Assembly (NCBI GenBank): GCA_004431415.1
Contig: QPMI01000010.1
Span: 186,001 to 250,000, forward strand
Length of the DNA: 64,000 bases
Reading direction: 5' to 3'
Source of the DNA: Cyanophora paradoxa CCMP329
Taxonomy: Eukaryota; Plantae; Glaucophyta
A program made the translations under genes and the position numbers. This document shows positions 13,201 through 63,790 of this stretch, one piece after another. Every line of letters starts with the position of its first letter. The first letter of the stretch is position 1. The notes under the pieces are model-generated. The model ran no database searches and was not told where the DNA came from. It saw only the letters and a list, made by a program, of their open reading frames with translations.

Positions 13201-14687
13201 AACCGCGCCCGCCTTATCGGCGATCTGAAGAGGGCTCGTAAGCTGTGGGCGGGGCGCGGCGGGTGAAGGGAAGCACACGCGCTCGCCTCGCGTTCGAAGA
13301 GGTGGACGAGGTGGACCGGCACGGCGGGGTGCTCTCGGCGGCAGCGCACGCGTTCCCGCGGGCGTCGTGAAAGAAGGCACGATGCCGCGACCGCGCCGTG
13401 CAGGGCCCAGCGCCGGCAGCAACGAGCTCGAGGCGTCTACCGCGACACGATGTTCAACTCCTTCTGGAGCGGGTGAGGCGCCCACCAGCCTCGGCCTCGC
13501 CGGCGCCCGGCCTGAGGCGTACGACTTGCTAGCTTGCTGCTGGGGCTGAGCATCGGCCGCGGTGTCCGACTACTTGGCCACAGGCCACAGTGGCCAGTTC
13601 AGGGGGGGTACGTATACGTTTGCTCGCCAACCATCCTGCAGCGTGCAGGAGAGCACATCGTCTCGCGCCGCACCTTCGCACAGACAGCTAGCAAACCTCC
13701 AGCATCATCGTTTGACGCCAGCTTGGCCGCCCGGAGCGACGCCTGCGAGCGGCGCGACATCGCCCTTCCACGTGGCGCAAGAACGCAGGTCAGCGCACAC
13801 GGAACCATCGCGGATCGCTCGTAGCTAACGTTTAGAGCGCAGAAGACCGCCGCACCCAGCCGGCAGGTCGCGGCCTGTAGGTTCCAGGTCGAGCACGGTG
13901 CTAGGGGCTCGCAGCTTGAGCCTATGTGCGTCCAGTATGTGCTCATAAGTACAATGATTGGTTCCGGAACGTTTGGCGTCGAGTGCCGCGCGCGGATCGC
14001 TTAGCCATGGCCCTGCAGTACTAGTACTAGCTATAGTACTAGTGCATCATCCCTCATCTGCCCGAACTCCCAGCGTCCTAGCGCGCGGTTCCGGCGCGCG
14101 GTTCTGGCGGAGCGAACCGTACTTGTTGGGCGCTCGTCCGCTCTGGCACGTCAGAACCTAGATTTCGGATGCGCATGCCCTGGAACAGAAGATTCGGGCA
14201 CTTCGCTGTGATCTGCCCTAATCGATTTCGGATTGTCCGAAGTTCTCGTTCTGTGCGTTGGAACAAGAGCAGAAGCGCGCTTCCGCGAGCCGTTCCGTCC
14301 GTCGGAACGGACCCCCCCTTCCACCTGTACGTACATGCGTTAAGCTTCTGATGAAAGAAGCTTGGAGAGCGCTGAATCCAGATCGCTTATTAATAATCAT
14401 TCAATTGCAATCACATCGATATCGTTTTCACGTGGTAATTATATAAGCGTTGCATTTGCTGAGGAGGCCTTCGGGAGGGGCCTTCGTCACTTGAGCGCGC
14501 CCCCCGGCCCGCGCCCCCTGCAGCTGCCTCGCCCAACCTCTTGATCCGAGCTCGAAGTTTATTCTATTTTATTTCAAAGTGGCCCCGCGGCCGCTGAAAA
14601 GGGGCAGCGGTCTCTGCGTATACTTGCAAAGCGAAAGCGAAAGCGAAAGGTGAAAATTAAAGTCACTGAGTGTCACAGTGTCCTAAA

Positions 14688-19372
<4,685 letters not shown>

Positions 19373-23671: not shown

Positions 23672-25073
23672 TAGGCCTGATGCTTGACCCCCCCCGGCTT
23701 CAAGCCAAGCCAAGCCAAATTTTGGCCTTCCGGAGTCAAGCCAAGCCAAGCACCCGAGCCGGCCGGCTCAAATGCTTGGCCCCTCGGCTAGGTCAAATAT
23801 TTGTCAAATGCTTGAGGGGGGGGTACCCCATGTACGCCCCTCTTCCCCTAGGCCTCTAGATCTAGCTATAGATCTTCCCTAAGGCGCGCGCTAGCTAGCT
23901 ACGCACGTACGTATACGATCTTGCTCAAATTGACTCAGTGAAACATAAACAACTAACTCGACTTCCGCTTCTTTCCATCTGGAGACCCTTCAGGTCGCCC
24001 TACTGCCTTCTTAATCTGGCCTGCCAACTCGAAAATGGGAACACCAGCAAGGTATACGTACAGCTCATACAGATTAACGAGAGCAGCAATGGAATCATCG
24101 TTAAGAGAAGCCCTATTCTCTACAACGATCTGGCCAGCATGCGACCAGACACGCTCAGAATAAGTAGAAGAACCGGGGCAAGAGCCATAGCGGCGGTACA
24201 GGGCAGAAACGTAAGGAAAATCTAGCATATGCTCGCGAAACCAAACAAGGGGGTCCTGGCCCCAAGAGAGAGCTACAAGGGCGTCCCACTCAGCTATCTC
24301 TGTGAGGTAGCTCTTAAGCTGCGGCTCTAGGGGGTTGCCGGGGGCGGCGGGAGGAAGGGGCCCCGCGCCGCGCGCGGGGCCTTCAGCGCCCCGGGCCCGC
24401 GCCAGTGACACCCGCGAGCTTGCGCTCGAGGCTAGAGACCACGCGCCCCTCCTGAGGGGCGGGGGCGGGGGCGGGCGCACGGGTTCAGGGCCAAGGCCCA
24501 GCCGCGCATCCAGTGCGCGCTTGCCACGCTGAAAGGCAACATGCCGGTAACGATTGCGCGAGCCAGCGCGTGGTGCTTCGCCAGGTTATCTTCATCCGAG
24601 AGCGGCTTCACGGCCTCAAAGGCTGGGCCGAGCGTCGCCTGCCCTGCCGCGTGCTGAGCGGATTCGCCATCTGTCGGCGCGAACAGCCCGTGCTGCGTGT
24701 TGAAATGGCTGTCGATGCTCGATGTCGCGCTGATGTTTTTGAACACTGTCTTACAAGCGAACTGCCGCAGTGCCGGCCGTGCTTCTCCTTGTTGAGCAGG
24801 CACATCGCTGCTTTCTTCCCGTGCAGCTTCCCCTGGATGATCTTGTCGCCCTGCCAGACCCACGAAGTGAGAATGTGGATCTGCCGCTTAAGCCAGAGGT
24901 GGCTGTCCATCGGCTCGAAGTCGTCCGCGTCCGTGCGCGGCCCTTGCGCTGCTGCAGGCGCCCCTGGCGCAGCTGCAGCTGCAGGCGCATCGCTGGAGCC
25001 GGCGATGGGCTGCGCGGGGGCACGGAATGAGATGTTGCCGGACGCGTCCTTGCCGATGACTTGCCGGACGCGT

Positions 25074-25104
<31 letters not shown>

Positions 25105-25211
25105 ATAATATTTGCAAGTATCTTCAAGCACGGCTTTCTGGCTCAAATGCTTGGCGCTAGAGGTCAAGCCAAGTGCTTGAGGCAAATGCTTGACCCCAAG
25201 CAGCAGGCCTA
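23672..25211 (-). mobile_element. Internally deleted hAT transposon
   Basis: TIR taggcctg(a/c)tgcttg and 8-bp TSD cccaggcg (23664-71 and 25212-19). caagcc/tgcttg subterminal repeats. Remnant transposase has a BED-like C..C..H..H, LARAIVTGMLPFSV, and the hAT dimerisation motif DPLVWF..FPYVSAL..CPGSSTYSERVWS..RASL. The catalytic core is deleted. Confidence 0.93.
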
Positions 25212-25322
25212 CCCAGGCGGGGAAGCCGAACCGTCAGGTTAACGTTTCGAAAACTATCCGGTACCCCTCCAGTGCGAGGACGAACCGTTTTTTGTTTTAC
25301 AATTTGATTCGATCACAGCCTC

Positions 25323-33300: not shown

Positions 33301-36300
33301 TACTATTCACATTTACGTTAGTTGTGGATTATGTAATTAGAGGGCCCGCACCGTACGAGGAGGGCCTTGAGGACCTCGGGCCTGCGGAGGACGGCGCGCG
33401 CGTACCGCCGCGTGCACGCCGCCGCCTGCGCCCCGAACGACGCCGCGAAGCGCGCCGAGAAGGGGCGCTCGAGCCCGCCCGCCGCGTTCTTCTGGGACTG
33501 CGGCAAGTGTTTCAATCTTGGCTTACGTAGTTTTAGTTTTAGATTGGTTTACTTTAGTGCTTTAGCGCTTTGGTTTTAGAGAGGACGCGGAGCGGGGCGG
33601 AGCGGAGCGGGGCGGAGCTGGCGGACCAGCTCCTGTTCGAGGGCGGACTGCGCCGCCTCGGCCCCCGCGCGGCGCGGGCAGGCGCGCCAGCGCTCGGCGA
33701 CATCGGCGGCGGGGCCCGCGCCGGGGCCCGCGCCGAGCCGGGCGCCCTCGCGCTTGCCCCCGCACACCTCCAGCACCTGACAGCCCCGAGAATCAAAGAA
33801 GGGAGGGGGGGGGGGATTAGGGGGGTAGGACGCACGAAGTCGGCGGGGTTGTGGCCCTTCGGGCACTCGTACCCCAGCGACGCGAAGTGGGCCAGCACCT
33901 GCCGCCCCGTGCACGCGACCGCCGGGTCAGGAGGCTCGGCGGCTACGATTTGAGCGCCGCGGGGTTCCTAAGGTGTTCTAAGATGGATCCAATCTTCTCC
34001 TTGGTCCAATATTAATGTTCTTCTTCTGAGGATCCAAGTGCACTAACAAGAGCCTATAGCTAGTGCAACCGAAACCCAGGGGCCAGCGCAGCAATCAACC
34101 CAACCCAATCCGCCCCATCTTTTAACGTCGGGCACGCGGGAACGCCCGCCGCACCTCGAAGGAGGGGGGGCCGAGGGCCCCGAAGTAGGCCGCCTCGAAT
34201 TCTAAATTATACTCTAGATCCTAACTCTTAGTTGCCCAGGAACCTAAGGTGGATCTAATCTAAGGTGGATCTAATCTAAGGTGGATCTAATCTAAAGAGA
34301 TCCACTCTCACTATAGATCCGCGCACCTCGGAGGAGGCGGGGCCGAGGGGCCCGAAGTAGGCGGCCTCGCCGCCGGCGCGGAGGAGGAGCATCCAGTCGA
34401 AGAGCTCGAAGAGCTTCGCCGACGGCTGGTGCACCGTGCTGCGGGGGGCCGGGCGGGGCGAGAAGGTCAGGCAAGGCGGAGGGGGCTCGGGGTTCGTGAC
34501 GCATTGGGGCTCGGTGCCGATGGGCCACGGCCGCACTAGTACCTCTAGCTCGCTCCTCTAACTCTGCCCCCGTTGCTCCTGGCGTCGTTAACGTTCGCGC
34601 ACCAGACGACGGCCTGGCCGGCGCGGGCGAGGGCCTTCACGGCGCGGAGGACGTGGAGCGCCGCCACCGCGTCCAGCCCCGACGTCGGCTCGTCTGCCGC
34701 CGGCCGGCGGGTCAGACCAGTCGGAATCAGAAGTACCGGGAAGTTAGGGAGGAGGGGCGCCGGTGCTCTAGCATAATGCTCTAGCATAAGGCAGGTCAGA
34801 AGTTGCGGTTGCGGAGTTGCGTAGAGGCGGCGTGAACGTTAGCGGGTGGGAGGTTAGGACAGGTCAGCAAGCTACGGTTGCAGGCGTTGGATTGGGATTA
34901 GAAGCGTGTGCAGGAGGCGGCGGCGGGCGGGTCACATTGGCGGGGGCGGAGGCCCAGATCTAAAGTACAAGGCTTCAGCCTCGAAGCTTACGGTGGCGCA
35001 GTGAATTGCGATTAGCGTAAAAGAGATAGGTCTCTTATTAGGCTTAAGCATTTTGAGTTACTTAGGAGGTTTCTGATAGACCGCACCGAGGAAGAGGATG
35101 GCGGGGCGGGCGACGAGCTCGACGGCGATGGAGACGCGCTTCCGCAGCTCCGGCGAGTGCGCCGCCCTGCCGAAATAGAAATGAGAGACCCTCGGAAATC
35201 TATAAGAGACCTCTAGCTATATAGAAATCTATATTGGCTCTCGCGGCCGGGGCGCCGCTCAGGCTCAGGCGAGTCGACCGCGGTCCGGTGGAGCGGGGGC
35301 GCGGGCCGCGAAGCATCCGAGGAGGAGGTCGGCTAGATATAGCTAGATATAATGGCCCCTAGAAAACCTTCTTCTTCTTCTTAAGAGACCCGATTGCAAG
35401 ATTCCATTCCAGACCCGACGCACCCGAGGAGGAGGTCGGCGTGGGGGCGCAGCGCGAGCTCCTCCATCGTCTCCTCCGCCTGGCCCCGCGCCGGGCCCGT
35501 CAGAAGGCGCGGGGACCAGGCCGAGGCCGGGGCCGGGGACAACAGAGATTCGAGGGTACTACTCTAAGTTTAGTTTCTCCTTGAGGAAAAGGAGGGGCGG
35601 GGCCGAGGAGAGCGACTGGCGGGGGCGGGGCTACTTTTCGAGAGTACTACTTTTAATTTAGTTTCAACTTGAGTAAAATGAGGGGCGGGGGTGGGGCGCA
35701 CGGCCTGGAGCTTGGCGGCGCGGGAGAGGGAGCCCGGGAGCCGCAGCAGCGCCGAGAAGACCACCGCCTCCCGCACCGTCTGAGGCAAACGAGTTGGAGG
35801 GCGGGGTGGATGGGAGACGGCATAGACGGCTTGGACTCGAACGGCGTACGGCGGCCGGCCGGCGGAAGGGGTACACAAGGCGGCCGGCCGGTTTAGATCT
35901 AGTGCGATGGGAGCGGGGACCTGCTCGGGGATGAGGAGGTCGAACTGCTCGACGTAGCCGGCGAGGCGGTGGAAGAACCGGTCCCGCGGCCGCCCGTTGA
36001 TCCGGATCTCCCCTGCACGTAAACAGGTCAGAGGCAGGACACGCAGGAGAGGCTGAAGCAGAACGCGGGCGCGCCCGTGACCTTGCCCTGCTCCTTGCGG
36101 CCGGCCAGAACGTCCAGGAGCTGCGCGCGCGCGCGCGGGGCGGCGTGAGCGGCCGGGGCGCGAAGCAAAGCACCGCGCGCCGCCCCCAAGCACCGTCGTC
36201 TTTCCCTGCGGGCCGGGCGCGCGCGCCCCGTCAGCGGCGCCGGAGAGCGGGCGAGGAAGCTAAAGGGCGGCGCACGGCGCCGGAGGGGCCCATGAGGGCC

Positions 36301-39300
36301 ATGAGCATGCCGCTCCTGCAGTAGGCCGTCACCCCCGTCAGGACCTGCTTGCCCTGCGGAGCGCACCGCGCGCTCGAGTTTAGGGCAGATTGCATTAGAA
36401 AGACGTAGTAGAGCGGACCTTGATGGAGTACCCCAGGTCGCGCCACGTGATGACGGCTGGCGGGTGGCGCGGCCGCTCCGCCGCCTCGGACGGCATCTCC
36501 ACCGCGACGCTGCGAACGAAGTGAGGGGTACCCGATTCGGAGAGCAGCTACAGGAAGCAGGGCGCACTGCGGGGGCGGGGAGCGGGGCGTGCGGCGCCCG
36601 TTCGCGTCCCCCCCCTCCTTCTTCCCGGTACCCCCCTCGTCCTCGAAGAAGCGGGGTACGACCTCCTCCTCCCTGCGGACGAAGGCCCAGGCGAAGAGGC
36701 CGGCCGCGCCAAGGGCAAGAGCGAAGAGGGCCAGGATGCCTATGTCCCGCCACACCCACTCCGCCTCCGTCCTCAGCGTGAACTGGGGCGGAGATTAAGG
36801 GGAAGGGCGGGGGGAGGGGAGGGGAAGGGGGGTACGGCGCACAAAGTCGAGGGCGGCGACGCCCGGGAGCCCGCCCTCCAGGGGTAGATCCTTCAGCTGC
36901 GGCGAAAGCTCGAAGAGGGCGGGGGGTACGGGAGGGCTCGAAAGCGGGGTACCTCGTTCAGCACGAGGGCTGCGGTGGACCAAAACAGCGGAATCAGGAC
37001 GGGATGGGATGCAACGGGGGTACGCGGATCTAGATCTCGCCTTCGATGGGGTACACGAGGAAGGCCAGGTAGTGCATCCATATCCAGGGCTGCGGGGCGG
37101 ATCGAATCCTCGCGAACGGTCCCCGGCGAGCCCGGAGGGGTACGGGGCGCACGGAGGGGATGAGCTCCTTGGGTACCATGAATCCGCAGAAAACGAGGAC
37201 GCCGGCCAGGCAGCCCGAGATGAGCACGGTACCCTGGCGCGAGATTGGGGGGGGGGGGGACAGATCAGTCATGTGACCTGGTGGGGACCGGCAAGAGGGT
37301 AAGAGTACCTGGGCGGCATTCAAGGACAGGGCAACCACGATCTGAGTGAGGCTGGGGGGGAATGAGTTCCGGGGGGAGAGGGGCGGTTCAAGGATAGGGG
37401 TACGCACCCGTATGATGTGATGAAGACGAGCCAGAGGACGAAGATGAGGGTGGCGTAGCGCCCCCCGCCTGGGGGTACGGGGTGAGAAGGGCGGGAGAGG
37501 CGGAGAAGAGGCGCAGTGGAGTGGGGAGTGGGGGTACGCACTTTCGGCGGAGGAGAAACCGGCGGGCCAGTAGGCTGCGCGGGCGTCAAGCACGCGCATT
37601 CGCTTTAGTTTTTCGGCTTGTGGAATGTATCTAAAATGTTTCAGGTCGTCCTACAATAACAGCGAAGCTCACATAGGGACGTCAGCGCGATGATCTCGAG
37701 GGCCAGCAGCGGCGTCTCCGCGGCCGCCCGCGCGATGTAGTACTGCCGGGGGGCAGAAGTGAGGGGGGAAAGTGTTGAGGGGAGGGGAGAGAAGGGGGCG
37801 CACGGGGGCGGTTCTGTAGTACCCCGCGCGGCTGCGGGTCGGGGAGGGGCACCCGTCAGAACGCGATCTCGAGCTCATAGCGAGCCTCTGACAACGCAAT
37901 TTTGCTTTAAGCTATTTTAGGAGCACGATTCTGCTCACCTCTGTATGTAGAAGATCTTCCTCTCCTCGAAGAAGCGGGGTATGGCGCCCATGACCTCCAA
38001 AAGCAGCGTACCCGCCCACACGAAGCTCTGAGAGGAGGGGGGTGGGGGTAAGGGGAGGAGGCGGGGGGGGGGGGGGGGGGGGTTGGAGGGGGGCACGCGC
38101 GATGGAAACGCGGAGGATGGCGCCGGTGAAGTTTCGGGGGATGGAGAGGAAGAGTGTACCCGTCAAAAAGCCCGCGAAGAGCGCGTGGATGTACCTGGGG
38201 GTTACGAGATAAGAAACTCGAAACAGAGCCGCTTTCAAGCTCAGCGCGCCTGGTCTTGAGCTGGGGCGTGTTGCGGCGCCAGAGGCGGGCTTCCCGCCCG
38301 AGGCAGAGCCAGAGCGCAAGCCACGCAGAGCGAGCAAGGCCGCCCTCGACGGCCGCCGCCGCCGCCCCGGGCGCCGGCCCCGCCTCCACGCTCCGCGCCA
38401 CTTCCGCCTCCGCCTCCTGCGCGGGGGTACGGTGTTTAGGCAGGCAAAGAGGGAGGGAAAGGAAGGGTACGGGTGCGCCGGGGCGGGCCTGCTTCAGGGG
38501 GGACGAATCGTACGCGGCCACCAGCTCCGCCTTCGAGAGGGGCCCGTCGGGGGGTACGCAGTCCAGCGGCAGCGTACCCGACTCGGGTTCCAGCACGTTC
38601 TGTCGGGGGGGAGGGGGGGGTAAGGGGACTCCGGCGGGGGGTGGCTGGGGCGCATGGGAGAGGAAGGGGTACGTTGATAAAGTCGGGCAAGGTCATGTAC
38701 GCGGGCCGCCTGTACCCCGACAGGGCCACGTGCCCCTCGATTCCCGTCCTGGGGCCTGCTTCGAAAATCACGAAAGGATGGAGAGGGGGGGAGCGGGGGG
38801 AGGCGGAGCGGGGGGGTACGCGCGCACCGCAGTAGACGACGCGGCCGGCGGAGAGGAGTACGGCGCTGTCGAAGAGGGCGAACGCCTCCTCGCTGGGTAC
38901 AGGATTGGTCAGAAAAAAAGGTGCCGGAACCTCCGAGAAAGAATTCTGTATCCTCGCCTGGGCTGCAGCAGGCTCATGACGACGGTCCGGCCGTGGGCGG
39001 CCAGCTCACGGCACGCCGTCACGATCTGGGGGGTACCGGTGAGCTGGGAAGCGAGGGGGAGGGAAAGGCGAGGGGGTACAGGGCGCACGTCGAGGGTCAT
39101 GGGGGCGTCGAGGCCCGTCGAGGGCTCGTCCATCTGAGAGGCGAACGAAGCTGAGGAAAAGAAGGCGCCGGGGGTACGGGAATCGCGCACGACGAGAACC
39201 GACGGATTAGATACCATCTCGAGGGCGATCGTCACGCGCTGTGGCGGCGGCGTCGTTCAAACCCCAAGGGGGGGGGTACGGGGGCGGCGCGGACCCGGCG

Positions 39301-48858: not shown

Positions 48859-49074
48859 ATGTAGGAGGCGTAACTTAACTTAGCGTTCTCAAATTGCCAA
48901 ATTCATCAAAAACCGGAATGCCGAGTCGATGAATGGCCGAGGCCAGACCTTCGCTCTATGGCGGCTTAAGAAAATGTGTACCCCAGCAACATTGCCGCGT
49001 CGTTAAATTGCCGAATTCGGCGTCTCGGCAATTTACGGTAATTAATAGACCCGGCAAAATTCCGCCTCCTACAG
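48859..49074. mobile_element. MITE (aattgccg subfamily), second copy
   Basis: tgtaggaggcg...ccgcctcctacag|TA. Internal ccccagcaacattgccg.gtcgttaaattgccgaattc matches 46310-46347. Confidence 0.85.
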
Positions 49075-49506
49075 TACAGTCTCCATAACCCGTGACCAAT
49101 TGCAATTCAATGCACAATGACACTGTGAGTCTGTGACACTGGCGTCTGAGGTACGTATACTAGTAACGGTACTACGGTAACGGCGATCGATATCGCACCG
49201 GTACCGCGATTCGCGCGCGAGTTCTTCAAGAGTCTTTGTCGCAAATTCAGGGTGCGCCCGCCGCCTGCCGCCCGCGGCGCCGCGCGCGCCGCGGCGCGCG
49301 TTAGACAGCTGCGCGCATGCAGGCCCGACTAGACTAGGCTAGGCCTCATGATCAGGGCCTGACGAACTAGATCATCGGAACGTCAAGGGCCCGTTCGATC
49401 TGCTGCTGATGCGACTCCGCCCGGCGGCCGCGGCGAGTTTCATCGTGCTGATTTCGATCCGGGATCCGATCCGCTGAGCGCAGCCGCAACATCCGTTACA
49501 GACGCC

Positions 49507-50428
49507 ATGGCATCCTGCGCCGCGCCCACCAAGTTTTTCGCGGAGCGCTTCGCCGATGCCGTCGCCGCGGACCCCGGCGCGGAGCGGTCGTACCTCGCCT
49601 TCGACGTCCAGGTGAGCGCGCGCTTGCAATTGGCGATATCGATGGATGCTTCGAATTCTGGGCCGCCCCGCTCATTAATATTCATAATAAAACTAACATA
49701 TGCATTCCCCCTCTGCCGCAGACGAAGTGCATGGGCGATGTGATGGCTCACGTGAAGTGCGCCTGCGGGGACCCCGCCGCCCTCGGCATCGACTTCACCA
49801 ACCCTACGTCCCCGGCATTCCAGGCCAGTCACGGCCGGCCGGCACCGGCCGCCGGCAGGGCTAATTTAAAACTTCAGCGCTAATTATAACCAACCCTGGC
49901 CCCTGAAATGACGAAGAGTGACACCCGAACCAGCTTTAGCGAATCTGAACTTTAGCTTTAACCAGCCCTCTAATTATATATATAGTGTACAATGCCGATC
50001 GATATCGTCGAAGAGTGACACCGTGGGACGCAGGCGTGGGACGGGTGCGCGCGGCCGCTGTTGGCGCAGGGCCAGCAGTGCCGCGTCGACTGGGACCTCG
50101 TCAGCGCCCCGCCGAGCTCGGCCCTGGACGCCGACGCGCAGGAGGCCGACGAGGACGAGGCCGCGGCCGAGGCCGAGGCGGTGCGCCCTGCAGCCGTCGA
50201 CGTCACACGCGATGTCCACTTGAAATTTCCCCGTGCCGTGCCTAGATCTAGATCTAGATCTAGACCAATTTTCGGGCCCCGGCGCCGCCCTCATCGCTAT
50301 ATATATATATGACCTCTCCTGAGCTCGCGATCGCGATCGCCCCGCCTGAGCTCGCGCAGGAGGAGGACTTCGCGGAGGCTATCGCCGCCGCCGACGCCGA
50401 AGCCGCCGCCGCCGACCTCGCCGCCTAG
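49507..50428 (+). CDS. Hypothetical ~140-aa protein, 4 exons, CX9C...CX10C motif and acidic tail
   Basis: MASCAAPTKFFAERF..AFDVQ|TKCMGDVMAHVKCACG..PAFQ|(GC donor)AWDGCARPLLAQGQQCRVDW..EAEA|EEDFAEAIAAADAEAAAADLAA*; all phases compatible. Confidence 0.7.
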
Positions 50429-50929
50429 CCGCCTAGCGCTAGCCGCCTAGCCGCCCGCCCGGCCCGCTCGGCAGCGGCCGCGGCGGCTTGTGATTGCGAC
50501 ATCGATCGCCCGCCCCCACACAGTAAGCCGGCTTCGTTGAAATGGCATGTCTAGAGTGGCCGCGGAGCCTTGGGGGTATTGGGGTATGGGGGTATTGGGG
50601 GGGGGGGGGCAGGAGGCGGGGGAGCGGAGAGCGGGGGGGGGGGGGGGGGGGGGGGCCTCCGCGAGTCATGATCAGGAGTCGCGCGACGGCCGCGGGCTTC
50701 AGCTGCCACTTTATTTAATGCAAATCTTTCCAATTTATGCAAGAGAAGGAGCAAGTTGGGGGGCCGAACTCATGATCAGAATCATGCCTATGATCAGGCG
50801 GCGAGCTGCAGCTGGGGGCCGGGGCTGAGGGCGGCGAGGCGGGCAGAGAATCCCTCTATTAGCTATAGGCTAGTTTATCTGAGTATAAGAGCGCATTAAT
50901 TTATCCGAGCTGCAGCTGGGCGGCGGGCG

Positions 50930-53900
50930 TCAGGCGGCGGGCTGCAGCTGGGCGTGGGGACCGGGGCCGAGGGCGGGGCCGAGGGCGGCGAGGCGGGCCT
51001 CGCAGGCGCGCAGCACCCCGAGGCGCCCCCCCAGCTCTCCCCTGCGCGCGGGGGGCGAGAGCGTTTGAGGGGCGGGTGAGCTTGAGAGGCGATTGCGAGC
51101 GATGAAAAGGAGGGATGCGCGGGTGTTTCCATTACGGAAACGAAAAGAAACGGCCGGAAACGGGGTTATCTAGAAGGTCGCGATCGCGATTTAAGGATTG
51201 AAACAATATGGTTATCTATATCTAGATAATTATAAGGGGTTATCTTTCCCCCATATTGATCCCTAAATCAAACGGGGCGCGCGGCTTTATAAATCAAAGC
51301 GGAGGCGGAGGCGCAGGGGCGCGAATGCACCGGCGGCGGGCGGCCTCGGGGGGCTCGCGGAGGAGGAAAGGGGGGCAGGGGCGGTTGTTTAGATGTAGAG
51401 CAGATGCGATACAAGAGGTCGACGTCTTCTCTAGATATTTATATAGGAGGCGCTTTATATGGTCTTTGGCCGGGGCGGCTTCAAGAGGAGGCGAGGCTCG
51501 AGGCTCGCACCGCCGACTTAAGCTTAGATATTACAGAGCTTGGTCTTGGGTCGACTTAAGCTTAGATATTACAGTGGAGGCCCGCAACTATATATAGCGC
51601 AGGGCGCGAATGCACCGGCGGCGGGCGGCCTCGGGGGGCTCGCGGAGGAGGCCGGCGAGCCCGCCCTCCCGCCCCCCCGCAGGCAGCAGCACCTGCGGGG
51701 GCCGTGAGCTTGAGGGGGAAAGGAGATGTAGAGGGGGGGGTCGGAGGCGGCGGGCCTCGGCGAGGAGCCAGTCCTCCAGCTCGTCCTGATCGCGGGAGGA
51801 TAAGCTTAGTAATTTTATAAGGAAACGGTCCTCCGGGGGGGGGGGGGGGGGGGGGAGAAGGGGAAAGGGAAGGGGGTACGGCGCACGGGGAAGTCCTCCA
51901 GCAGCTTCGCGTCGGCGATCTGAAGCGGCGGGCACGCGCAGACTCGAAGGGGAGGCTCGAAGGGGAGGCTCAGGGCCGGGGGGGGGGGGGGAGGGTGGGG
52001 GGGGGGGAGCGCACCTGGGGCACGTCGGCCGCCAGCGTTGTCGTCACCTACGAAGCCCCGTCGTGATTAGCCGAACGAGCGAAAGGGGCACAGCAAGCGC
52101 GCGGCGGGGCTAATCACGAGCTAAAGGCCCCCCTAGGGGCACCTAAAGGCTAATCACAAAGGGATCGAGCGGAGGGGCCTTTGGCTTGATTAAAAATGGA
52201 GGCCTAGGGTGCTTCGGAATCGTCGGGGCGGGCCGGGGCGCGCCTGCTCGACGTGGTCGTGGAGGAGGCCCTCTGCGGGAGGAGAGGGGGGCTTAGAATT
52301 GAGCTGGCCATGGGCGCGGGGGGCGCGGGGCGAGGGGCGGGGCGGAGGGCGGGGGCGCACTGGTGACGCCGAGGGCGTAGGGGTCGTGGTAGTAGCTGTA
52401 CCCCACGATCCGCATCTGCGCGGGGGTCGAATGCGAAAGAAAGAAAGAAAGAAAGAATAAAGAAGCTAGAGCTGGGATCGAATCAGAATCTACTCGATTT
52501 CGGAATTCGAAGCTTAAAGGGCTGGGCAGGGTGGGGTGGGCCTCTCCAGAGAAAAAATAAAGGAATAGGGCGGGGCGGTGCGGGTCGGGTCGTCCCCGGG
52601 CCTGCCTCAGGCAGCCTGGTCGGCCTGGGTGGGGGCCAGCAGGCAGCCTCTAGAAAGAAAGCTACTCTTCTTCTTTTCTCAAGGGGCGGGGCGGGCCTGG
52701 TCGGCCTCGGCATGGGGGGCGACGGAGAGGCGGAGGGCGACGTCGGGGCGCCCCAGCACGCCCGCCTCCACCAGCAGCGCCTCCCGCAGCGCCTCCCGCC
52801 CGTCGATCCGCACCTGTCAAACATAAATAAAGGCTCATAAGGCCTAGGCCTCGAAATCGGCGGGCGCCTAGAGCTAGCTAGGCCTGGCGCGGGGCGGGGC
52901 GCGCGCTTCATATTTGTAAGCTATAATTATAACATAATCTTTAATGCAGTGTAAGACTGCGAGAACTGAGGTCCACGAGCATCGCTGCAGGGGGCGCGGG
53001 CGCGGGGAGGGTTTCCAGCTTGGGGGGCGGCTGTGAATTGGGCCTATGGCTTAGGAAATCCACGGCCTAGGAAGGCCTATGGGGCGGATGTGAGGGGACC
53101 CTATATACCCTAGGAGGAGGGAGGGGAGGAGGGGCTCTGCGGCCCAGGGGGCGGCTGTGGGGGGTGGGGCACACCTGGACGCGGGCGCGCCCGAAGCCGA
53201 CCTCCACCTCCACCGCCACCCGGCCCCCCGCCTGCCCCGCAACACAATTGAAAAATAGATCGGATTTACGCGGGTAGAGGGGCGGAGCCTCGGAGGGGGC
53301 GTAACTTGAGGGGCGGGGGGCAGGGCGAGGCGAGCTGCGGCTGCCGCGGGGCCGGCGACCCCCTCCCCGCCCCGCCCGCGGCCGCGGCCGCCGGCACCGG
53401 GCCCGCCGCCCACTCGGACTGCCCCCGCGCGCGCGTCAGAACGATACATGGGCACAAATTTCGCCTTCAATCCTAAGAAAAAGCTTCTAGATCGCCTCGT
53501 ATATATAATTTCAAAGAGCGTTCGAGCTCGAGGCGGGCTCGAGGGCGGACCTCCTAGATCTCTCTCTCTAGTTCGCCTCTAATAATCGTAGATCGCCTCC
53601 TATAATTTTGAGGGCTCGAGGGCGGACCTGGGCGGCGAGGACGCGGCCGGAGGTGAGGATTAGGACGGCCTTGCCCGCCTCCCAGCGCTCCCCGACCCGC
53701 CTGCGCGCCGGTCGCCGGAAAGCGAAAGCTGAAGAGCTCCGCAGCCGGGGGCGGAGGCGGGGGCGCCGACCGGCAGAAGCGTAGCGTGATGTCAACCTGC
53801 AGATATCGATTAGGCTGCGACTTTAGGTATGGCATGGGTGCGAGACGTCGACTAAATACAGCAGAGCTCGACTGCAAGATCTAGCCAGGTGCGGGGCGGG

Positions 53901-56900
53901 GGCGCGCCTCGGAGGCGAGGCGCTCGGCGAGGAGCTCAACGGCGTGGCGGCCCCGCCCCAGCGCCGGCTCCACGTACCTGGGGGGAGAGAGGGGGGGAGA
54001 GGGGAAAGGGGAGGGGCGGGGCGGGGGTGAAGAGCTGGGGGGTGAAGGACGAAGGAATAGTAGAGAGCGTGCGCACGCGCCGTGGAGGACGGCGGAGGGG
54101 GAGACCACCACCACCGCGTCCCGCGCCTGCGTAAGGCGCCTCAGGTGAGTCCGAGCCATTATAGTTAGAAGCCCTATTAGAAGCCTATTATTACAAGCTC
54201 TTTTAGCAGCCTGGTTTATTAGAGGCTTTATTAGACGACCACCACCGCGTCCCGCGCCTATTATTACAAGCTCTTTTAGAAGCCTATTTTATTAGACGCT
54301 CTATTATGGCGCCTCGGAGGAGCCCGAGCCCGCTCAGATGCGTCTGAGCGCGGGTGGGGGGGGGGGTACCTCGGAGAGGCGGAGGCGGGGGGAGGGCTGG
54401 TCCAGGGAGAACTCGGCCCGCGGGGGGTACCCGTGCCCGTACACCTGCGAGGGGGGCGGCCCAGCGGGACCGGGCAGGTGGCTCATGATCAGCGGCCCTT
54501 CTCTCGGCGGCCCGGCAATGGGCCCGACGGTGCCGGACGAGATTTAAGGTGAGCAAGCTAAGAATAAGCCAAGAACAAGCTAAGAATAAGCTAAGAAGAG
54601 AATAGGCTAGAAGCTAAAAGTAAGCTCAGAATCAGCTAGCGCTAATTGAAGGCTTGAGCGGCGGACCTGGGGCCCGACGATGGGGGCGACGGCGCCGGAC
54701 AAGATTCAAGTGAACAAGCTAAAACTAATCTAAAAAGCTAAAAAGAAGCTAAAAAGAAGCTAAAAAGAATAAGTTTCTTATTAGATTGAAGCGGCGGACC
54801 TGGGGCCCGACGATGGGGGCGACGGCGCCGAGGCCGGCGAGGCGGCAGCTCGCCCGCACCGCCACCAGCTCCCGCACCTGCCGCTCGGAGCCCGTCGAAC
54901 GGAGAGGAGCGGGCCGCGATAGCGCTTTGTTGTATAAGCGCCGGCTTTGATTCCTCTGCCCCTTTGATTCCTCTGCGGGGCGGGGGCGGGGCGGGGCGGG
55001 GCCGGGGGCGGACGAGGGCCTCGGCGCGGGCGGCGGCGGCGGCGAGGGGCCCGCCCTCCGCGAGCAGCCGCCCCAGCACCGCCCCCGCAGCGCCTCGTGC
55101 CGCCCCAGCGCCTGCCGTGAGAAAGTGAGATAAATTATAGAACCGAGGTGGAAAGAGCGGATTTATAGGAGGGAGGGAGGCGGGGCGGGGCGGGTGGGCG
55201 GGGAGGCGCGTGGCGGGAGGGGCGCGGGCGACGCCGCCGACGCCCATCAAGCGACGCCCATTACGAAGCTTATTACGAAGCGAGAGAGGTTAGAGGTGGG
55301 GGAGGGGGGGGGGGGGGGGGGGGGGGGGCAGGGAGAGCGGCGGCCGGGGGGGATGGCGGGGGGGGGGGGGGGGGGGGGATGGCGGGCGCGCGGAGCCGAC
55401 GCTCCTTTAAGCTCATTTGAATTACGGGCGCACGGCCTCTGCGGCGTCGGCGGCGAGGCGGCGGAGGTAGGCGGCCGTTGCCCGCACGAGCTCCGCCGAG
55501 GGCGCCTCCAGCCCCAGCACCGCCTGCCGCGATCCGAATCAAACAACACACGTGCACGGGTCAGATAATTAATATAATAGCGATGTATACGGAGCACGAA
55601 ATGGATCAGCAGCTAGTGAGAAGGAGCGCCGAAATTAATGCTTATTATATGAGCAGTACTAGTCGACGTCCTGACCTTGCGGGCGAGGTAGCGGAAGGCC
55701 TCGTACGGGATGAACTGGTCCGGGCGCCGCCCCTGCCCCACCGCAAGCGCGCGAACGAGAGCTTAAGCCTCAGTCTGGATTACTGGTGTGGCTGAAGTGG
55801 GGCCGGAGGCGGCACCGTCTTGTTCGTCACGAGCGTCGCGATGGCTGCGAGGTCGAGTCGGGTCAGATCGAATTTCGGGCCGGCGCGGGGGCGGGCGCGC
55901 GGGCGCGGGGACAAGTGCGGAGTAAACAACGTGGAGGCGCTAGCTAAATCAAACATACGTTTACAGGCAAGCTTCCTAAGCTCCTCTCGCTTTCATTTCT
56001 GCCAATTATAATGGCGCGGACCGGGGTCGTCGTCGACGAGGCGGGGGAGGGCGCGCAGGCGGCCCGCGAAGGGCTCGAAGACCTCCCGCCGCAGGTGCGC
56101 GCCCCCGTACCTGCGATCAAGGTGCGTCCTTAGAAACTTCGAGGCTTATACATTAGAAGCTTCTGCAGCTTGGGCTAGCGCGAGGGCGGCGCCCGCCCGG
56201 CTTAATTACTCGAGGCTACAAGTTCTCAAGTTAAATCTTTCCTTAAGCTCCGGGGGGCGGGGGGCGGGGGGCGGGGGGCGGACACGGCGTCGGTGCGGTC
56301 GACGCCGGCGCCGTCGATGGCGCCGCGCAGCCGCGTCCGGAAGTCCCGCAGCAGCTCCATCGCCAGCCGCAGCTGCGACCCGTGTTAGAAGCCGATGCTA
56401 TTACAAGATCTATTGCAAGCCGCAGCTGCATGCGCCCAAAGTTAGAAGCCGAGGGTTTATTAGAAGCGATTACAAGCTCTATTAGGAGCTCGAGCCTATT
56501 TTATTTGAAGCTCTACTAGAAGCCATCGCCAGCCGCAGCTGCATGCGCCCAAAGTTAGACGGCGAGTTCTCGCGGCGCTTTCATTCGCAGATGGTCGAGC
56601 TTCATAAATAAAAGAGCGTATGCTCTTTTAAGATGCATGCTTGCGAGAGGACATACCAGATTTAGATCTAGAATCTATGGAAGCCTAAATCCAGCAGCAG
56701 CAGAGCTTAAGATGGGGACGCTACTACGCTTCACTGCGCGCACCTGGGAGGCCTTGTCCTCCGGGACCCCTCTCCCGAGGGTCTGCGGATGCGAACCGAA
56801 TTCGAAAAGTAATTATAAGCAGGTCTAGAGAACGGCGGCTTTGTGCGTATAGAATATGAATTTCAAACAAGGTATATATAAAGGGTCCATTTTCGCGCCT

Positions 56901-59891
56901 TGAGCTCGGCCGTGTCGCGCTGGATCAGCTCCGCGATCTGGCGCAAAAACGCTCGCGGCGCGAAAATCGAGTCTGGGCGGAGCGCGAAAAACGTCGAGGT
57001 GCGCGCCTGGGCCTGGATGTCCGGGATGCAGCGGTCGTACAAAGCGACGATCTCCTGCGCCGCCGTTCAATTTGGTTAATCGCTTTTTCGCGCCGCGAAA
57101 AGTTGCGAAATTTTAATTTATAATGCTCATTATTTACTTAGCTCAAGCAGAATTCAATGAAAACTGCACGAACGAGCACGCGCGCGCATGCGCACGCGCA
57201 TTGATTTGTTAGCAGCTAATGTGTTGTTGGCGGTGATGAGGCGGGGCTTGGGGCGGCATTTAATCTTCTTTACGAAGTTTTAGTTGAAGCTACAATTACA
57301 ATTTTAATCCTCTTTTAGGTGGATGACAATTACAATGAGCAATGGCGCTAGGGCGCACGCGCTGGAGGGCGGCGATGAGGCGGGCGGTGCCGCAGTGGGG
57401 GGCGAGGGCCGCCTCGCCGTAGACGGCGTGGCCCCCGAAGAACGCCTCCTCCGCCTCCAGCGCCGCCTGGGGCCGAGCGCGCGGATCGGATGGGGGATGT
57501 CAGAGTCCGAAGACGGATTTGAGATGAGGGAAAAGAATCTGGAATGCGGCGCGTCTAGCAACTCATTACTAATTAGAATGAACAAGATGCTAGGACGAAT
57601 TAATATTGAGGAAGCAGAGGAAATGAATCGATGCTGAAGCTTAAGGGAGCTCAAGCGGGTGCCTGCGAACCTTGACGGTGCGGCGGGCCTCCACCTCGCG
57701 CTGCGAGCGGTTCTTGACCGCTGCCCGGCCGTAAATCAAACAATTCGTCGCCTAAAAGCTAGCGGCCTCCTTATCGCAAGTTACGATTCGCTGGCGCGCA
57801 CCGAAGTAGCCCTTGGTGAGGCGGTGCTGCCGCCCCAGCAGCACGTCCGACGCGTCCGTCCCCTGCGCGGCGTCGACAGCAGAGATCGGAGGAACTTAAA
57901 CTCGAATTACCGAGGCTGGTATGGGGTATTGGGGGGGGGGGGGGGGGGGGGGGGGGGAGGGGCCGGGGCGGGGACGGACGTCGTCCATGATGTCGACCTT
58001 GGTGAGGACCCCGATCGTCCGCACCCCTGCCCCCGCCGTCGGCGTCGGAGCGGATCGGAGGAAGAAAGCGAGGATACCTAACTGGGTTACCTTCAGGGTC
58101 CACTTCGCGCGCCAGCTGCGCGCCGCGGAGCGCACGTGATCATGAGCGATTGGCGCGAAAGCAAAGGTGCGTAATGACCAGAGGGAAAATCAAAGGGGGG
58201 AGCGGGCCGGGCGTGACGATCCGCGAAATCAAATGGCGCGAAAGGTGCGAATGCGACAGAATAGCAGAACAGGTTAATATATATATATGATCTAGACCGT
58301 CATGTTCAGAGGGAAAATCAAAGGGGGGAGCGGGCGTGCCTGGATGGCGTCGGAGCCGGCTAGGTCGGCGTTGGCGGCCGAGACGGCCAGCACGATCGTC
58401 CGCCCCGGCCCGATGTACCTGCGCCGGTCCCGAGGCAAGGCGCGGGCGGCGCCGGCGTTCAACATTGAAGTGAGCGTTCAAGTGAAAAGCCGGTCGCGGA
58501 TAGATTTGCAGGCGGGGTCGCGCGGCGAAATATGCGAAAATGGGCATTAAAGGCATTAAAGGCATTCAAGGGTGGGGCGTGGGCGGCGCGCTTGCGGGCG
58601 AGGTCCTTGGTGAGCTTCTCGAGGTTCGCCCGCGACCCGGCGCCCTCGGGGTTCGCCGCGTTCTGCGCCCCGCCCAATATATTAATCAGCCGCGTCCCCG
58701 CGCGCCAAAAACCGAGTTATTCGGAGCTGAAGCGAGGCCGGCGCCGCATCCATATCGTTACTGAACGGCATCGGGGGCGCTTGCGGGCGTGGCCGCGGCG
58801 GCAGAAGCGGTGGAGTCTAGATCTAGATATTACAGACTGAACGGGCAGCGATACTAATTTTATGAACGGCAGCTGAACGGCAGCGGGGTGAAGGGGTCGC
58901 CGTCGGCCAGCGCTCGGTCGGCCGCGGGGGGGACGGGGCGGGCGCGCGCGCACGCGGGCGATGCCGGGGAGGTCGATGACGGTGAGGTCGGGGCAGTGCG
59001 CGCACTGCAGCTCCAGCACGACGGGCTCCTCCCGCACAAGCTGCGAAGGCGCGTCGGCCGCGGGCTCGTCTATAATCGAAGTGTTTCGATCAAGAGCAAG
59101 GAGCTCGAGCCGCCCGCGCGCCTTGCCGCCGTTGATGTCGAGGTTCAGGCGAGCGATCTCTTCCCGCACCTGTCGACTCCGGGATCGAATTCAGAGCGGG
59201 ACGGGGAAGAGAGAAATCGAAGCGCGCGCGCGCCTCCTCGACGCGATCCATAGAGATCTCCTGGCCGCCGCCCGACGTGAACCGAGCGAGGATCCCATCC
59301 ACGTCGCCTGCGCGCAGCGAATTACAAGGCGCTGCCCTACTAGCGGGGATGAAGCTTAAGGCCGTACTGGCGTGGATTAGGCGGAGGATGATCGGCCGCC
59401 GCGTGCACATGTCCTGCGTGCGAAATTCGAATTCGAAGCTGAAGTCCGCGAAAAGCGATCGCGTGGCGAAGCTCTAGCTCTCGAAATCGCGCGCCTTGTT
59501 CCGGGGGAAGATGTCGAGGCCGACGATGCTTTCCAGGACGCTGGACTTGCCGGCGCTCTGCCCGCCGACCACCGCGATCCGCGGCAGCTCGACGCTCGCA
59601 AGCTGCGCATGCGCGAGCCGACGAGCCGACTTGGCGCGCGCGAAATCGATTTCGCGCTGCCGACCGCGCGCACCGCGCGGCCGGCCGCGTGGCCGAGATT
59701 CAGGTCGTGCAGGCTGTTGAAGAGCGCAAGGCGCTCCCGAATTCGCCCGTCGAGCAGCCGCATCGCGCTCGTCTCCCGTGCACGGGACTCCGGCGCCGCA
59801 GCCGGCCTCGGAGCGTACGTGTCAGGGAGCGGCGCCGCAAAACCGCATCGAGGCGGCGAGCGCACTCAGCGGTGAGCTTGGAGGCCGCCAT
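50930..59891 (-). CDS. Dynamin-superfamily GTPase (Mx-like) with a SPRY-like insertion between the middle domain and GED; about 35 exons
   Basis: G1 [20 protein letters not shown]2 MCTRRP, G3 [11 protein letters not shown]4 [10 protein letters not shown], then GYFAVKNRSQ. Stalk: [44 protein letters not shown]: [47 protein letters not shown]. Start at 59891 or 59763. One apparent 1-nt poly-G slip near 55085. Confidence 0.92.
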
Positions 59892-60362
59892 CCCGATCTC
59901 CTCCCGTGCCTCAGGATCCTGTTTGCTCTCGATCTCAATTTTCGCAGACCCCCCCCCCCCCCCCCCCCGCCACGGCTCGTGATCTCAAGCTCGTGTACTG
60001 CAGCTTTCTCATGCCTTTGAAAGCTAGCCCAGTGCGCGCGCTCATGCCTCGAGGACCCTGCCAGGCTGAGGCTCCCGCTCGGATCCGGAGCGCCTACATC
60101 ATAAATTGTTCATATCCAACGAAACGCTGTCCGGCGTTCAATCTCAGAGACGCTCTCCCGACCCTGCCAGCTGGCGGCCGCGTGCGAGAAATGGGGCCGG
60201 GAAGGCGCCTCGAATGTGTATGCGCTGGTGCCCCCGCCCGCCGGGCCCCCGGGCCTTTGCCATGTGCAAAACTTTCAATTTAATTATTGCGCGTTCAAAA
60301 AAGAAGCGCAAGCGCTGGGATCAAGCTCGAGAATCTATGCCGAGCTTCTGAACGAAATGCGC

Positions 60363-60825
60363 TCAGGCCTTGTCGGTCGTCTTGCGGCCGAGGGTGTCGC
60401 CGGGGGCGCCCCGGGTGCCCATCGCGGCGCCGATCTCCCCCCCGGCCGCCGCTCCGAGGGCCGCCCCCGGGAGACCGCCTGCGCAGAGAGGACCCGCGAT
60501 CAGCTGCGCATGCGAAAAGCGACTGCGCATGCTCTCTCTCGCGCGCGGAGAACTCCGGAGCCCGACGGGAGAGAATTTCGCACCGATCACGCTGCCGGCG
60601 GCGGCTCCGAGGGCCGCGCCCGCGCCGGTGCTCACGCCGGTTCGCTGCCCGACGAACTCACCCGCGTCGCCGGGCGCCGTCTGCTGAGCGTTGGCCTTGA
60701 CCTTCTCCCGCGCTTCGCCCGCCTGCTGCGCGATCTCTGCGCGCGCGCGGGGATCACTCACGCGCGCACTTTGCGCGCCGACGAAATAAACGTGACCGCG
60801 CACTGCTGCGGTCGCCGGCGTTCAT
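60363..60825 (-). CDS. Small (~95-aa) glycine-zipper protein, 3 exons
   Basis: MNAGDRS|KIAQQAGEAREKVKANAQQTAPGDAGEFVGQRTGVSTGAGAALGAAAGSVI|GGLPGAALGAAAGGEIGAAMGTRGAPGDTLGRKTTDKA*. GT-AG introns in matching phase; two GxxxGxxxG helices. Confidence 0.75.
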
Positions 60826-61537
60826 GGTTTCGGCGTTGAACGTGTAGCGTTTTTGATTTCAAAGAATGCAAGTGCCGTGCACGGGAGACGATATTTATAG
60901 CTCATAATAAGATGCACGGGAGATGCGGTTTGCCTCGAGCTCGTGATCCCCTATATTAATTTCATCTAGCTATAGCTAGCGCCACCATTACTAAGTTAGC
61001 GCTGCTCCTCTCGAGCTGCTTCCCAGCCTAGTAGGCCTCATTATGCATGCTCCTCTCATGACTTGCGCATTCTGAAGTCGAGCTCGAGCTCCGAGGCTCG
61101 CGCGCAGATGAAAAAGGCGGAGGGAGCACTGATCATGACACATTTACTGCAACTGCGGCAACGAGCACCTGATCAGCCACTTGGCCATACATACTATGAC
61201 TCACAGAGATATGGAGCACTCGCGATCGGGCCAGTTTATACTATGATAACTAGACTGATAAACACGGATCATATCATTAACTGATTCGGGACGTCGACAC
61301 TACAGCTAATGCCATCTTTACGACTCGGCGACATCAGATACAGATGATCGGATACTGAGTGAAACAGAGCTAGAAAGGACTTGAAGTTGAACAATGAACC
61401 CCTAACACAAAAATAATAAACGAAGGCCCTGCCGCACTGCGCCGCGGCGGCAAGCCTCTGAGGGTCGCAATCGAGGGCGCCCTATAGCTACACCAAACAA
61501 TACAGGACGCCTCGGTGCCAAGAGAAAAAGTATGGAA

Positions 61538-63790
61538 TCACGACGTGTGCGCGTGCAGCGCAGGGGCAGCTGCAGCGACTGCCGTGCCGCCCGCTCCCGC
61601 GCCCGTGTACAGATCGCCGGCGCCGGCGCCGGCGCCGGCGCCGGAGTGCGCGTCGGCGGCCGCGACCTTGGCGTGGCCGATCTCCTCGTCGGGCTTGGCG
61701 TCCCCTCCGAGCTCCTCCAGGGAGAGGCCCTTGGATTCGGGCACGAAGAACGTGAAGAGCATGCCGATGAAATTCTGACGAGGAGCCCAGAGTCATGATC
61801 ATGATCAGGCGCCGGCGGCGGGACTTTTCCAGCGCGTGCGCGGCGCCTGGGCGCACCGTGATGGCCAGGATGCCCAGGGCGATGCGTAGGCCCAGGCCTG
61901 TGCCGCAGTCCGGGTTTCCCGGGTTGTCGTGCAGCTGGAACGGGTCCTTGGGGTCGTGGCAGTCCGGGCTCGTCGGCTCGCTCGCAGCGTACACGAAGCC
62001 AAAGGCGCCGATGATGGCGCCGAGCTTTCCCATGGCCGCTGCGCGTGACACGAGAGATATACCGATCAGCTTGGATATAGATGAGGATGCATGTGCTGAC
62101 GGACCGGAGATGCCGTGAGCCGTCGAGCGCCACCGTGACGGGAAGATTTCGGCGGGCACAACAAACGTGGTCTTTGGACAAGTCATGATCAGACGTAAGA
62201 CGCAGGGAGGCTGCAGGACGGTGCTCGGGCGCACCGAATTGGGACCCCAGTTCGCGAAGAAGAACGTCAGCGCGTAGAGCTGCGCCCAGATTCAATTAAT
62301 ATAAAGCGAACGCGGAGGCTCATAAATATTCGAGTTCAGAGCGAATTAACATACCACAATGAAGCCGCTCGGGTTTCCGCTATACGACTGAGGCAGGCAC
62401 GGTTATTTCATGGAACGTTCACGCCGATACAGAATTGAACTCGACTCAGATCGAGCGAATTATTGGCGTACCACATATTGGCGCCAGTCGGCGCACGACT
62501 TTACGTTGGCGGCGGTGAAGAGATTGCCGGCCGCGTCCTTGCCCAGCTCGTAGTCCGCCGCCTCGATCTTGGAGAAGAAGTGGTCCATCCTGGCCGGGTT
62601 GACGGAGTACTTGCCGGCCGCGTCGACGAGGTAGGCGGCCGACGTGTCGGTCGGGCCGGTCGGGAGGGCGCCGGCGATCTTGGGAATGACGACGGGCAGG
62701 CCGGCGGCGAAGCAGGAGCGGGCGACGAGGTCGAAGCGGTCCGTCGGAGTCTCGACGAAGCTGTTGTAGGCGCCGGCGATGACGGCCATGAACAGGGTCA
62801 TGAAGAAGAAGCCAAACATCTGCGTCGAGTTTCAGCGAGTTTTAAACGAGAAGAGCACATATCGATCATGAATCGAACAAACCTGGATCCTGCGGAGTAG
62901 GGTAGGAGATGAGAATTCGGAATCAGCCGCAGGGCCTAAAATGAGAATGCGCTTTCGCTCACCACCAGCGGCCGATCTTCTCAATGGTGAAGACGGTGAA
63001 CCAGTAGCCGGGGATGGTGGAGCCGAGTGCGATGATCGCCTGCGCGCGCGCGTTGTACCACGACGACTCCAGCGGGGTCCACCACGTCTTGGCGCCGCCA
63101 CCGACCGCCGGATCCGTGCTGCCGGCCGCGGGCGCCGTTAGTGAGGATCGAGAACCTTCAGCAGCGAAGAAAGCTTCAGAGGATCCAAGAGTACCTGTAC
63201 GCGAGGTTCGAGGGCGGCTCGCCCCACGCTGCCTTGTTCCAGTACGGCGGGATGGCGGCCGTGCGGGTCGGGTAGTACATGTCCCATCGCGGGTTCGAGT
63301 ACACGAAGTGGTTCTTTCCGTCCGCCTTGGGATCTTCGGACGGGAAGCCCAAGCCTGGGGTCCCGGAGCTGAACGGGTTTGTGCTGTAGCCCAGCCACAT
63401 CTTGCGCGGTAAAAGTTGATCGATCAGAATCGAATCGAAATCGAAGTGATTAATATGAATGATTAATATATTAGCAAAGCACACCTTCTGCTGGGCCTGG
63501 GCGCCCTGGACGAGGTACTTGGAGGGGACCCAGTCGACGGTGCGGAAGACGTCGGACTGGAAGAGGCCCTGCGAGTAGAAGGCGACGTCGAGGAGGAACC
63601 AGGTCATCGTCGTCCCCACCAGGTGCTTCCAGTGGCCCTGCGAGTCGCGACCGCGACGCGCGCGTGAGCTCCAATTTCGACCATTTCGTACATGTTCGTA
63701 CCTTGATGAAGTGCTTGAAGGTGTCGACCTTGTCCTGCACCGCGACGTTGCGTACGAAGGTCTCCGAGGCGTGCAGGCGGCGGTGCAGCA
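61538..63790 (-). CDS. Inorganic phosphate:H+ symporter (PHO84/PHT1 family, MFS), C-terminal half; 5' part outside window
   Basis: [39 protein letters not shown]|IQ|[23 protein letters not shown]|[22 protein letters not shown]|[11 protein letters not shown] and [13 protein letters not shown]. Confidence 0.95.

Follow-up and report, generated by a model that had tools for sequence, protein, structure and literature searches.

What occupies the stalk tip of a dynamin in the glaucophyte Cyanophora paradoxa CCMP329, and to which family does this dynamin belong? The window, that is, the whole stretch of 64,000 nucleotides (nt) that was analysed (contig QPMI01000010.1, positions 186,001 to 250,000), carries on its minus strand a predicted multi-exon dynamin gene (59891-50930), in which eight small exons lie between the middle domain and the GTPase effector domain (GED). 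A first-pass annotation described the product as an Mx-like dynamin with a PRY/SPRY (B30.2)-like domain at the stalk tip and as a candidate antiviral sensor-effector fusion. According to excerpts of PMC8565484, this position is taken in dynamin by a membrane-binding PH domain, in Drp1 by a variable domain that serves recruitment, and in Mx by loop L4. From sequence comparisons we propose, with a probability of about 0.5, that the gene encodes an additional, rapidly evolving dynamin of the Dyn/Drp group, likely a duplicate and not an Mx, with eight added tip exons predicted to encode a partner-binding domain of likely SPRY/ConA-like fold. The finding stems from a single gene of a single species, a predicted splice pattern and a fold call made by eye.

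The gene model comprises 39 exons and 812 residues, with no stop codon and one frame break; the start codon at 59891 is our choice, and the stop codon is at 50932-50930. Its 38 introns measure 60 to 574 nt, with GT donors in 27 cases and GC donors in 11, and 36 of them end in CAG. Searching with the GTPase frame returned P0002 (EukProt EP00741 Cyanophora paradoxa tig00000057_g82.t1), a public model whose peptides correspond to exons 4-22 of the gene, although the model leaves out several exons and in places translates intron sequence. P0002 ends just past exon 22 and thus contains neither the insert nor the GED; it apparently skips exons and stops early because 11 of the 38 introns have GC donors. 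Pfam recognised Dynamin_N (8e-8) and Dynamin_M (1.8e-30) on P0002. With profiles of our own, the middle domain was located at model residues 233-481 (E 8.4e-59, 35 relatives) and the GED near the C-terminus (E 3.6e-5, 10 bits, 37 relatives). The predicted features of the gene are as follows.

57359-59891, minus strand: exons 1-14, coding for an N-terminal helix and the dynamin GTPase domain, G1-G4 motifs intact (motifs; Pfam on P0002)
54800-57358, minus strand: exons 15-24, middle (stalk) domain (profile; most exon peptides identical in P0002)
55014-55111, minus strand: exon 23, 98 nt long, with a phase-0 junction on either side (codon log-odds)
54370-54444, minus strand: exon 25, start of the insert, 25 codons, phase 0 (exon scoring, blind chain)
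54077-54126, minus strand: exon 26, insert (exon scoring, blind chain)
53908-53977, minus strand: exon 27, insert, carries the G-x-H-x-x-E element, GC donor (exon scoring, blind chain)
53771-53796, minus strand: exon 28, insert, shortest supported exon, lowest codon score (exon scoring, blind chain)
53628-53700, minus strand: exon 29, insert (exon scoring, blind chain)
53398-53418, minus strand: exon 30, insert, 3' end uncertain, at 53398, 53353 or 53332 (blind chain)
53175-53231, minus strand: exon 31, insert, alternating Val/Glu strand pattern (exon scoring, blind chain)
52697-52813, minus strand: exon 32, insert, best donor 52697 (GC), phase 0 (exon scoring, blind chain)
52361-52415, minus strand: exon 33, predicted final strand of the insert, followed by the linker that leads to the GED (profiles, exon chain)
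50930-52272, minus strand: exons 34-39, GED and C-terminal helix (GED profile)

In several introns of the gene, the end of the neighbouring exon is repeated almost exactly together with its splice site, or short tandem duplications occur (54657-54697, 51317-51366, 56412-56453 and 54183-54306). Exon 24 contributes 41 nt to such copies, exon 38 contributes 50 nt and exon 18 the region of its acceptor; copies and duplications alike create decoy donors and acceptors.

The insert consists of exons 25-32 (54444-52697) and the first 8 codons of exon 33, and its length is about 163-185 amino acids (~170). Several measures indicate that it is coding. The GC content at third codon positions was 0.97 in the insert exons (153 codons), close to the 0.96 of the homology-supported exons (524 codons) and unlike the 0.59 of introns of the same region, and the codon log-odds of the insert were 1.07 in frame versus -0.48 and -0.83 in the shifted frames. 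Its splice sites fell within the leave-one-out range of supported exons in 15 of 16 cases, the sixteenth being swapped for a better donor at 52697. A blind dynamic-programming search for exon chains over 54799-52416 gave the same eight exons, exon 30 with a later donor, and scored 194 versus 30.5±11.5 (maximum 54) in 30 local shuffles, the antisense strand reaching 110. On a control region this search recovered nine exons, but the region was in the training set. Joining the middle domain to the GED across the insert would require a 2.4-kilobase intron, 4 times as long as the longest other intron. Phase-0 introns bound the insert at both ends, so that it may have been shuffled in and could be skipped without loss of frame. 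The eight small exons that the first-pass annotation had placed here are thus borne out in the DNA by codon composition, codon scores, splice sites and the blind chain, and all the peptide pieces that it quoted are present in the sequence; its exon borders need correction, since exon 32 probably ends at 52697 and the end of exon 30 is uncertain. That the insert is intron sequence over-called by eye is ruled out by exon scoring and the blind chain. Four runs under the species label, guessed to be RNA, were also compared with 49000-60500; the longest piece listed was 51 nt and GC-rich, and the neighbouring gene was likewise uncovered, so these runs have no bearing on expression.

The motifs and most of the trees place the gene with fission dynamins. 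The model contains TRRP, TKVD, NRSQ, GGA-x-L and the stalk motif G-R-R-x-x-x-F-I-P-x-E-A-F of Dyn/Drp type. The Mx-like references that we fetched carry TRC, TKPD, CRSQ and GRELPGF, which are absent from the model; TRC, TKPD, CR[SG]Q and GRELPGF are what we take to be Mx/DRP4 signatures. Traits of the GTPase domain that had been called Mx-like turned out to be common to non-Mx dynamins: dynamins of Perkinsus, of Gloeochaete and of ciliate type also contain PDLT-x-x-DLPG, and the L-G-x-x-x-P-E stretch recurs in those of Perkinsus and Gloeochaete and in the non-Mx protein P0202. Against the PDB, Vps1, dynamin-3 and Drp1 (E 1e-29 to 1e-26) ranked ahead of MxA (1e-19). In the stalk-only tree (22 rows) the model belonged to the core Dyn/Drp1/Vps1 group (Shimodaira-Hasegawa-like approximate likelihood ratio test 97), outside Mx (93), its nearest row being the C. 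paradoxa dynamin g6871 at 26% identity; a near-full-length tree without the insert (23 rows) also put it on the Dyn/Drp side (94), outside Mx (93). In the G-domain tree (30 of 43 rows) it was sister to Perkinsus, ciliate-type, Physarum and Gloeochaete dynamins (94/87), again outside Mx (93/88). Mx was represented by 2-4 rows in these trees. The label "Mx-like" is therefore not supported by motifs and best trees, and we advise against using it. As for the sole Drp1/Vps1 orthologue of the species, this identity is ruled out, because g6871 exists as a second, ordinary C. paradoxa dynamin, and a DRP5A is also reported.

Compared with known systems, the model has the G domain-middle-GED order of Dyn/Drp fission dynamins (classical dynamin, Drp1/Dnm1, Vps1, g6871), together with their TRRP, TKxD, NRSQ and GGA-x-L motifs, best PDB matches and stalk-tree placement. 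It differs from them by its very long branch, the absence of a proline-rich tail, and a tip of ~170 amino acids that is well coded, strand-rich and matches neither a PH domain nor a low-complexity variable domain. Alveolate-type, Physarum and Gloeochaete dynamins (Perkinsus KAF4674614.1, EP00026 P003925, EP00276 P017822) share with it ESIVGLD, CPDLT, TKVDIMD, VKNRSQ and the G-domain sisterhood of 94/87; however, the stalk motif of the alveolate-type group is G-x-x-L-P-x-F, the stalk tree separates this group from the model, and the spacers between middle domain and GED are short in Gloeochaete (21 amino acids), P0202 (28) and Physarum (31), unlike that of the model. For these alveolate-type dynamins we assume the label "DrpB-like". 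The 2025 Mx survey assigns DrpA and DrpB of alveolates to the Dyn/Drp clade (PMC11789081). With Mx, DRP4 and MxF the model shares the PDLT motif, the pattern of the N-terminal helix and the position of the insert, which is that of Mx loop L4, but it lacks TRC, TKPD, CRSQ/CRGQ and GRELPGF, and Mx L4 is a loop of ~40 amino acids and not a domain. Among the proteins compared, P0170 (Gloeochaete), P0141 (Physarum) and P0283 grouped together with support (98/95), next to the alveolate-type dynamins; their tip loops are short, their stalk motifs resemble those of Mx, and they are possibly an unnamed dynamin lineage.

The SPRY reading of the insert comes from its layout, which we compared by eye with that of Gustavus (2fnj). 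The distance between the first strand and the His of G-x-H-x-x-E, an element present in the insert, is 33 residues versus 34 in Gustavus, and the His-to-Cys spacing is 20 in both. After the Cys, the insert forms a hairpin that is followed by a V-x-V-x-V strand, then by an I/V-D-G/Q turn, and lastly by two paired strands, laid out as in Gustavus; a hand count gives identity at about 8 of the first 54 positions. The insert thus resembles SPRY/B30.2 domains (SPSB/Gustavus, RanBP9, TRIM PRY-SPRY) in length and, by eye, in the order and spacing of its strand elements, and differs from them by the absence of a profile match, by several replaced hallmark residues and by its location within a dynamin stalk. 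Overall, we estimate the chance that the insert is SPRY/ConA-like at about one half, and the chance that it is a folded domain of some kind at about three quarters. A PH domain was rejected as its identity, as a weak 4-sequence PH profile gave no match and the insert is about 60 amino acids longer than a PH domain. No Pfam family matched the single exons or the intron-containing read-through, the two forms in which the insert was scanned, and comparison of the insert with the PDB gave proline-rich chance matches only.

No orthologue was found among 1.84 billion representatives, though a different Gloeochaete dynamin was retrieved; the best match after P0002 was 37% identical. SPRY or PRY was seen in none of 125 relatives scanned with Pfam (124 of 147 new proteins plus P0283; for P0168, 5 of 14 families are among the matches listed) and in none of 120 matches listed. 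P0002 had no match in viral contigs, and the search with a 20-protein alignment gave 7 giant-virus and 15 metagenome-assembled genome (MAG) loci, none of them close. Likewise, the spliced or a related insert was sought in metagenome contigs, where none of 594 pattern matches was confirmed. The first-pass annotation knew of no described dynamin-SPRY architecture, and our literature search, which leaves out most subscription papers, found no description of such a fusion either. In the Mx survey (PMC11789081), covered through sections 8 and 9 and 12 of 19 supplements, the main text mentions neither SPRY nor glaucophytes. A dynamin with such a tip module thus appears undescribed. SPRY references were themselves scarce: the Pfam SPRY family was found in 1 of 300, 0 of 301 and 1 of 401 genomes, the first hit lying below the cut-off and being unused, and scans of viral (0 loci) and metagenome (1 locus) sequences contributed none. 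The references used were 4 domains from one contaminated MAG and 8 of 10 further proteins. Several prokaryote MAG records (L001-L008, L011, L012, L024-L027) hold eukaryotic contigs with ciliate-type dynamins, sponge-type Drp1 and SPRY genes; in the same set, two Mx-like genes lie on one contig and one SPRY gene is identical to a Corticium protein.

Several results weigh against our reading of the gene as a Dyn/Drp duplicate with a SPRY-like tip. The splicing of the insert is a prediction from the DNA, and a frame break lies upstream of it in exon 23. The G-domain tree disagrees with the stalk tree on placement, the branch of the model is long and compositionally biased, and approximately unbiased (AU) tests do not reject a grouping with Mx (p 0.111, 0.274, 0.263). 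As for the fold, four positions invariant in a six-sequence SPRY alignment (the Gly of V-G-V, the Asp of G-D, the Phe and Asn of F-x-x-N) are Arg, Gly, Val and Asp in the insert when aligned by eye. Our SPRY profiles (12 and 3 sequences) scored the insert at -2.9 bits or left it unreported, no higher than shuffles, and also missed genuine SPRY subtypes; hhalign gave a probability of 0.05%, the best pairwise z against 8 SPRY templates was 1.6 versus 1.4 for the best of 12 decoys, and a crude propensity scan, with Chou-Fasman values, predicted 24% strand and 37% helix, near the values of the G domain. The tip could therefore be a real folded domain of another kind, a different beta-sandwich or a mixed alpha/beta fold, its SPRY likeness being by-eye pattern-matching. 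The silent profile and pairwise tests, the replaced hallmark residues and the Ala/Leu/Arg-rich segments with helix propensity would all agree with this, but the tests have low power, as genuine SOCS-box-type SPRY domains reach just 5-6.5 bits with a 9-sequence RanBP-type profile, and scores in the opposite direction do not exceed 4.9. The length of the insert and the spacing of its elements also fit SPRY, the 4-sequence PH profile found nothing, and we regard another fold as unlikely. The frame break raises a further alternative, namely a recent pseudogene or truncated product: if the frameshift is real, no protein with both insert and GED is made. The extra coding module stands at the PH/variable-domain/L4 position as the first-pass annotation had it. 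That annotation makes no mention of the frame break, at which the codon log-odds of exon 23 change from frame 0 to frame 2 in a five-G run (55082-55086). This 98-nt exon with its frame switch, the public model that ends after exon 22 and, weakly, the failure to find the product of spliced exons 26-27 among proteins of 129-2000 amino acids (4927 candidates, none scored) speak for a pseudogene. However, the break falls in a G homopolymer, and the genome is GC-rich, with a published assembly built on PacBio data (PMC6704402, in excerpts); no other break occurs across 812 codons, and neither before nor after this one are codon bias, splice sites or G1-G4 disturbed; the public model also skips upstream GC-donor exons, so its end is uninformative. 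A homopolymer assembly error would be the simplest explanation of the break, and a pseudogene is quite unlikely.

Two further alternatives concern function. In the antiviral one, the dynamin polymer would carry a SPRY tip recognising a viral or microbial structure and would combine oligomerisation of Mx type with recognition of TRIM5 type. B30.2/SPRY is the capsid-recognition module of TRIM5. An extra paralogue on a very long branch, for which no orthologue was found despite the retrieval of a Gloeochaete transcriptome protein, would suit this role, as would gene turnover, which section 9 of PMC11789081 takes as a mark of antiviral dynamins and which the possible frameshift would fit, and the AU tests leave room for Mx. 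But Mx motifs are absent and the best trees lie outside Mx, no paralogues with swapped tips were seen (without a whole-genome search), SPRY is a by-eye call, and the literature searched (titles and abstract starts) has nothing on an antiviral dynamin of Cyanophora or other glaucophytes. Fast divergence and lineage restriction are thus the only points bearing on an antiviral role, which is unsupported, and we consider this alternative unlikely. Its fullest form, in which a SPRY/B30.2 domain fused into the stalk tip would have made an oligomerising restriction factor out of a housekeeping fission dynamin, reading a viral or microbial target by an independently evolved Mx-plus-TRIM5 logic, strikes us as improbable. 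The other alternative is an organelle-division specialist that would constrict the outer envelope of the cyanelle from the host side, a step that glaucophytes carry out without DRP5B, and whose tip would bind a receptor on the envelope. DRP5B is missing from C. paradoxa, and another mechanism has been put forward (PMC6704402 and PMC4164004, in excerpts); however, this role predicts orthologues in other glaucophytes and none was found, no outer division ring is reported to have been seen, and the gene lies outside the DRP5 family by its motifs. It is very hard to credit.

Returning to the Dyn/Drp duplicate with an added tip, a Dyn/Drp gene would have been duplicated and its copy would have gained a protein-binding module at the stalk tip. 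Spliced in, globular and SPRY-like, the insert would bind a partner, the GTPase polymer would assemble at the membrane or site of that partner, and it would use GTP to constrict or scaffold there; the tip would thereby play the targeting part that falls to the PH domain in classical dynamin and to the variable domain in Drp1. For the partner we prefer a host adaptor to a pathogen, because the motifs are of fission type. What is known to sit at the stalk tip is a PH domain, a disordered variable domain or the Mx L4 loop; if our reading is true, another folded, exon-shuffled module at this place would make the tip a swappable targeting socket and would be a natural template for redirecting dynamin polymers. 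Because automatic annotation failed on this gene (GC donors, frame break), comparable architectures may hide in intron-dense protist genomes. Were the antiviral alternative true, dynamin-based immunity would reach glaucophytes, a group unmentioned in the covered main text of the 2025 Mx survey (PMC11789081).

Other features of the window surround the dynamin gene. Tail-to-tail with it lies a small multi-exon gene (49508-50430, plus strand) with an Ala/Glu/Asp-rich tail, two frames of which had no informative Pfam match. On its upstream side, a frame at 60366-60821 (minus strand) gave a weak glycine-zipper match (PF13488, E 0.003), and exons at 61491-63423 (minus strand) resemble by eye a major-facilitator phosphate transporter, although the single frame scanned with Pfam gave no match. 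Exons at 35570-39100 (minus strand) look like an ABCG/pleiotropic-drug-resistance transporter by eye, which Pfam on one frame did not confirm. A hAT transposase remnant was found at 23956-25233 (minus strand; Dimer_Tnp_hAT, E 5.5e-12). Long intron-poor frames at 15266-17760 (minus strand) contain repeated beta-rich units with a weak bacterial Ig-like match (E 0.003), possibly a surface protein. Finally, a long GC-rich tandem repeat at 11860-13570 is open in all six frames.

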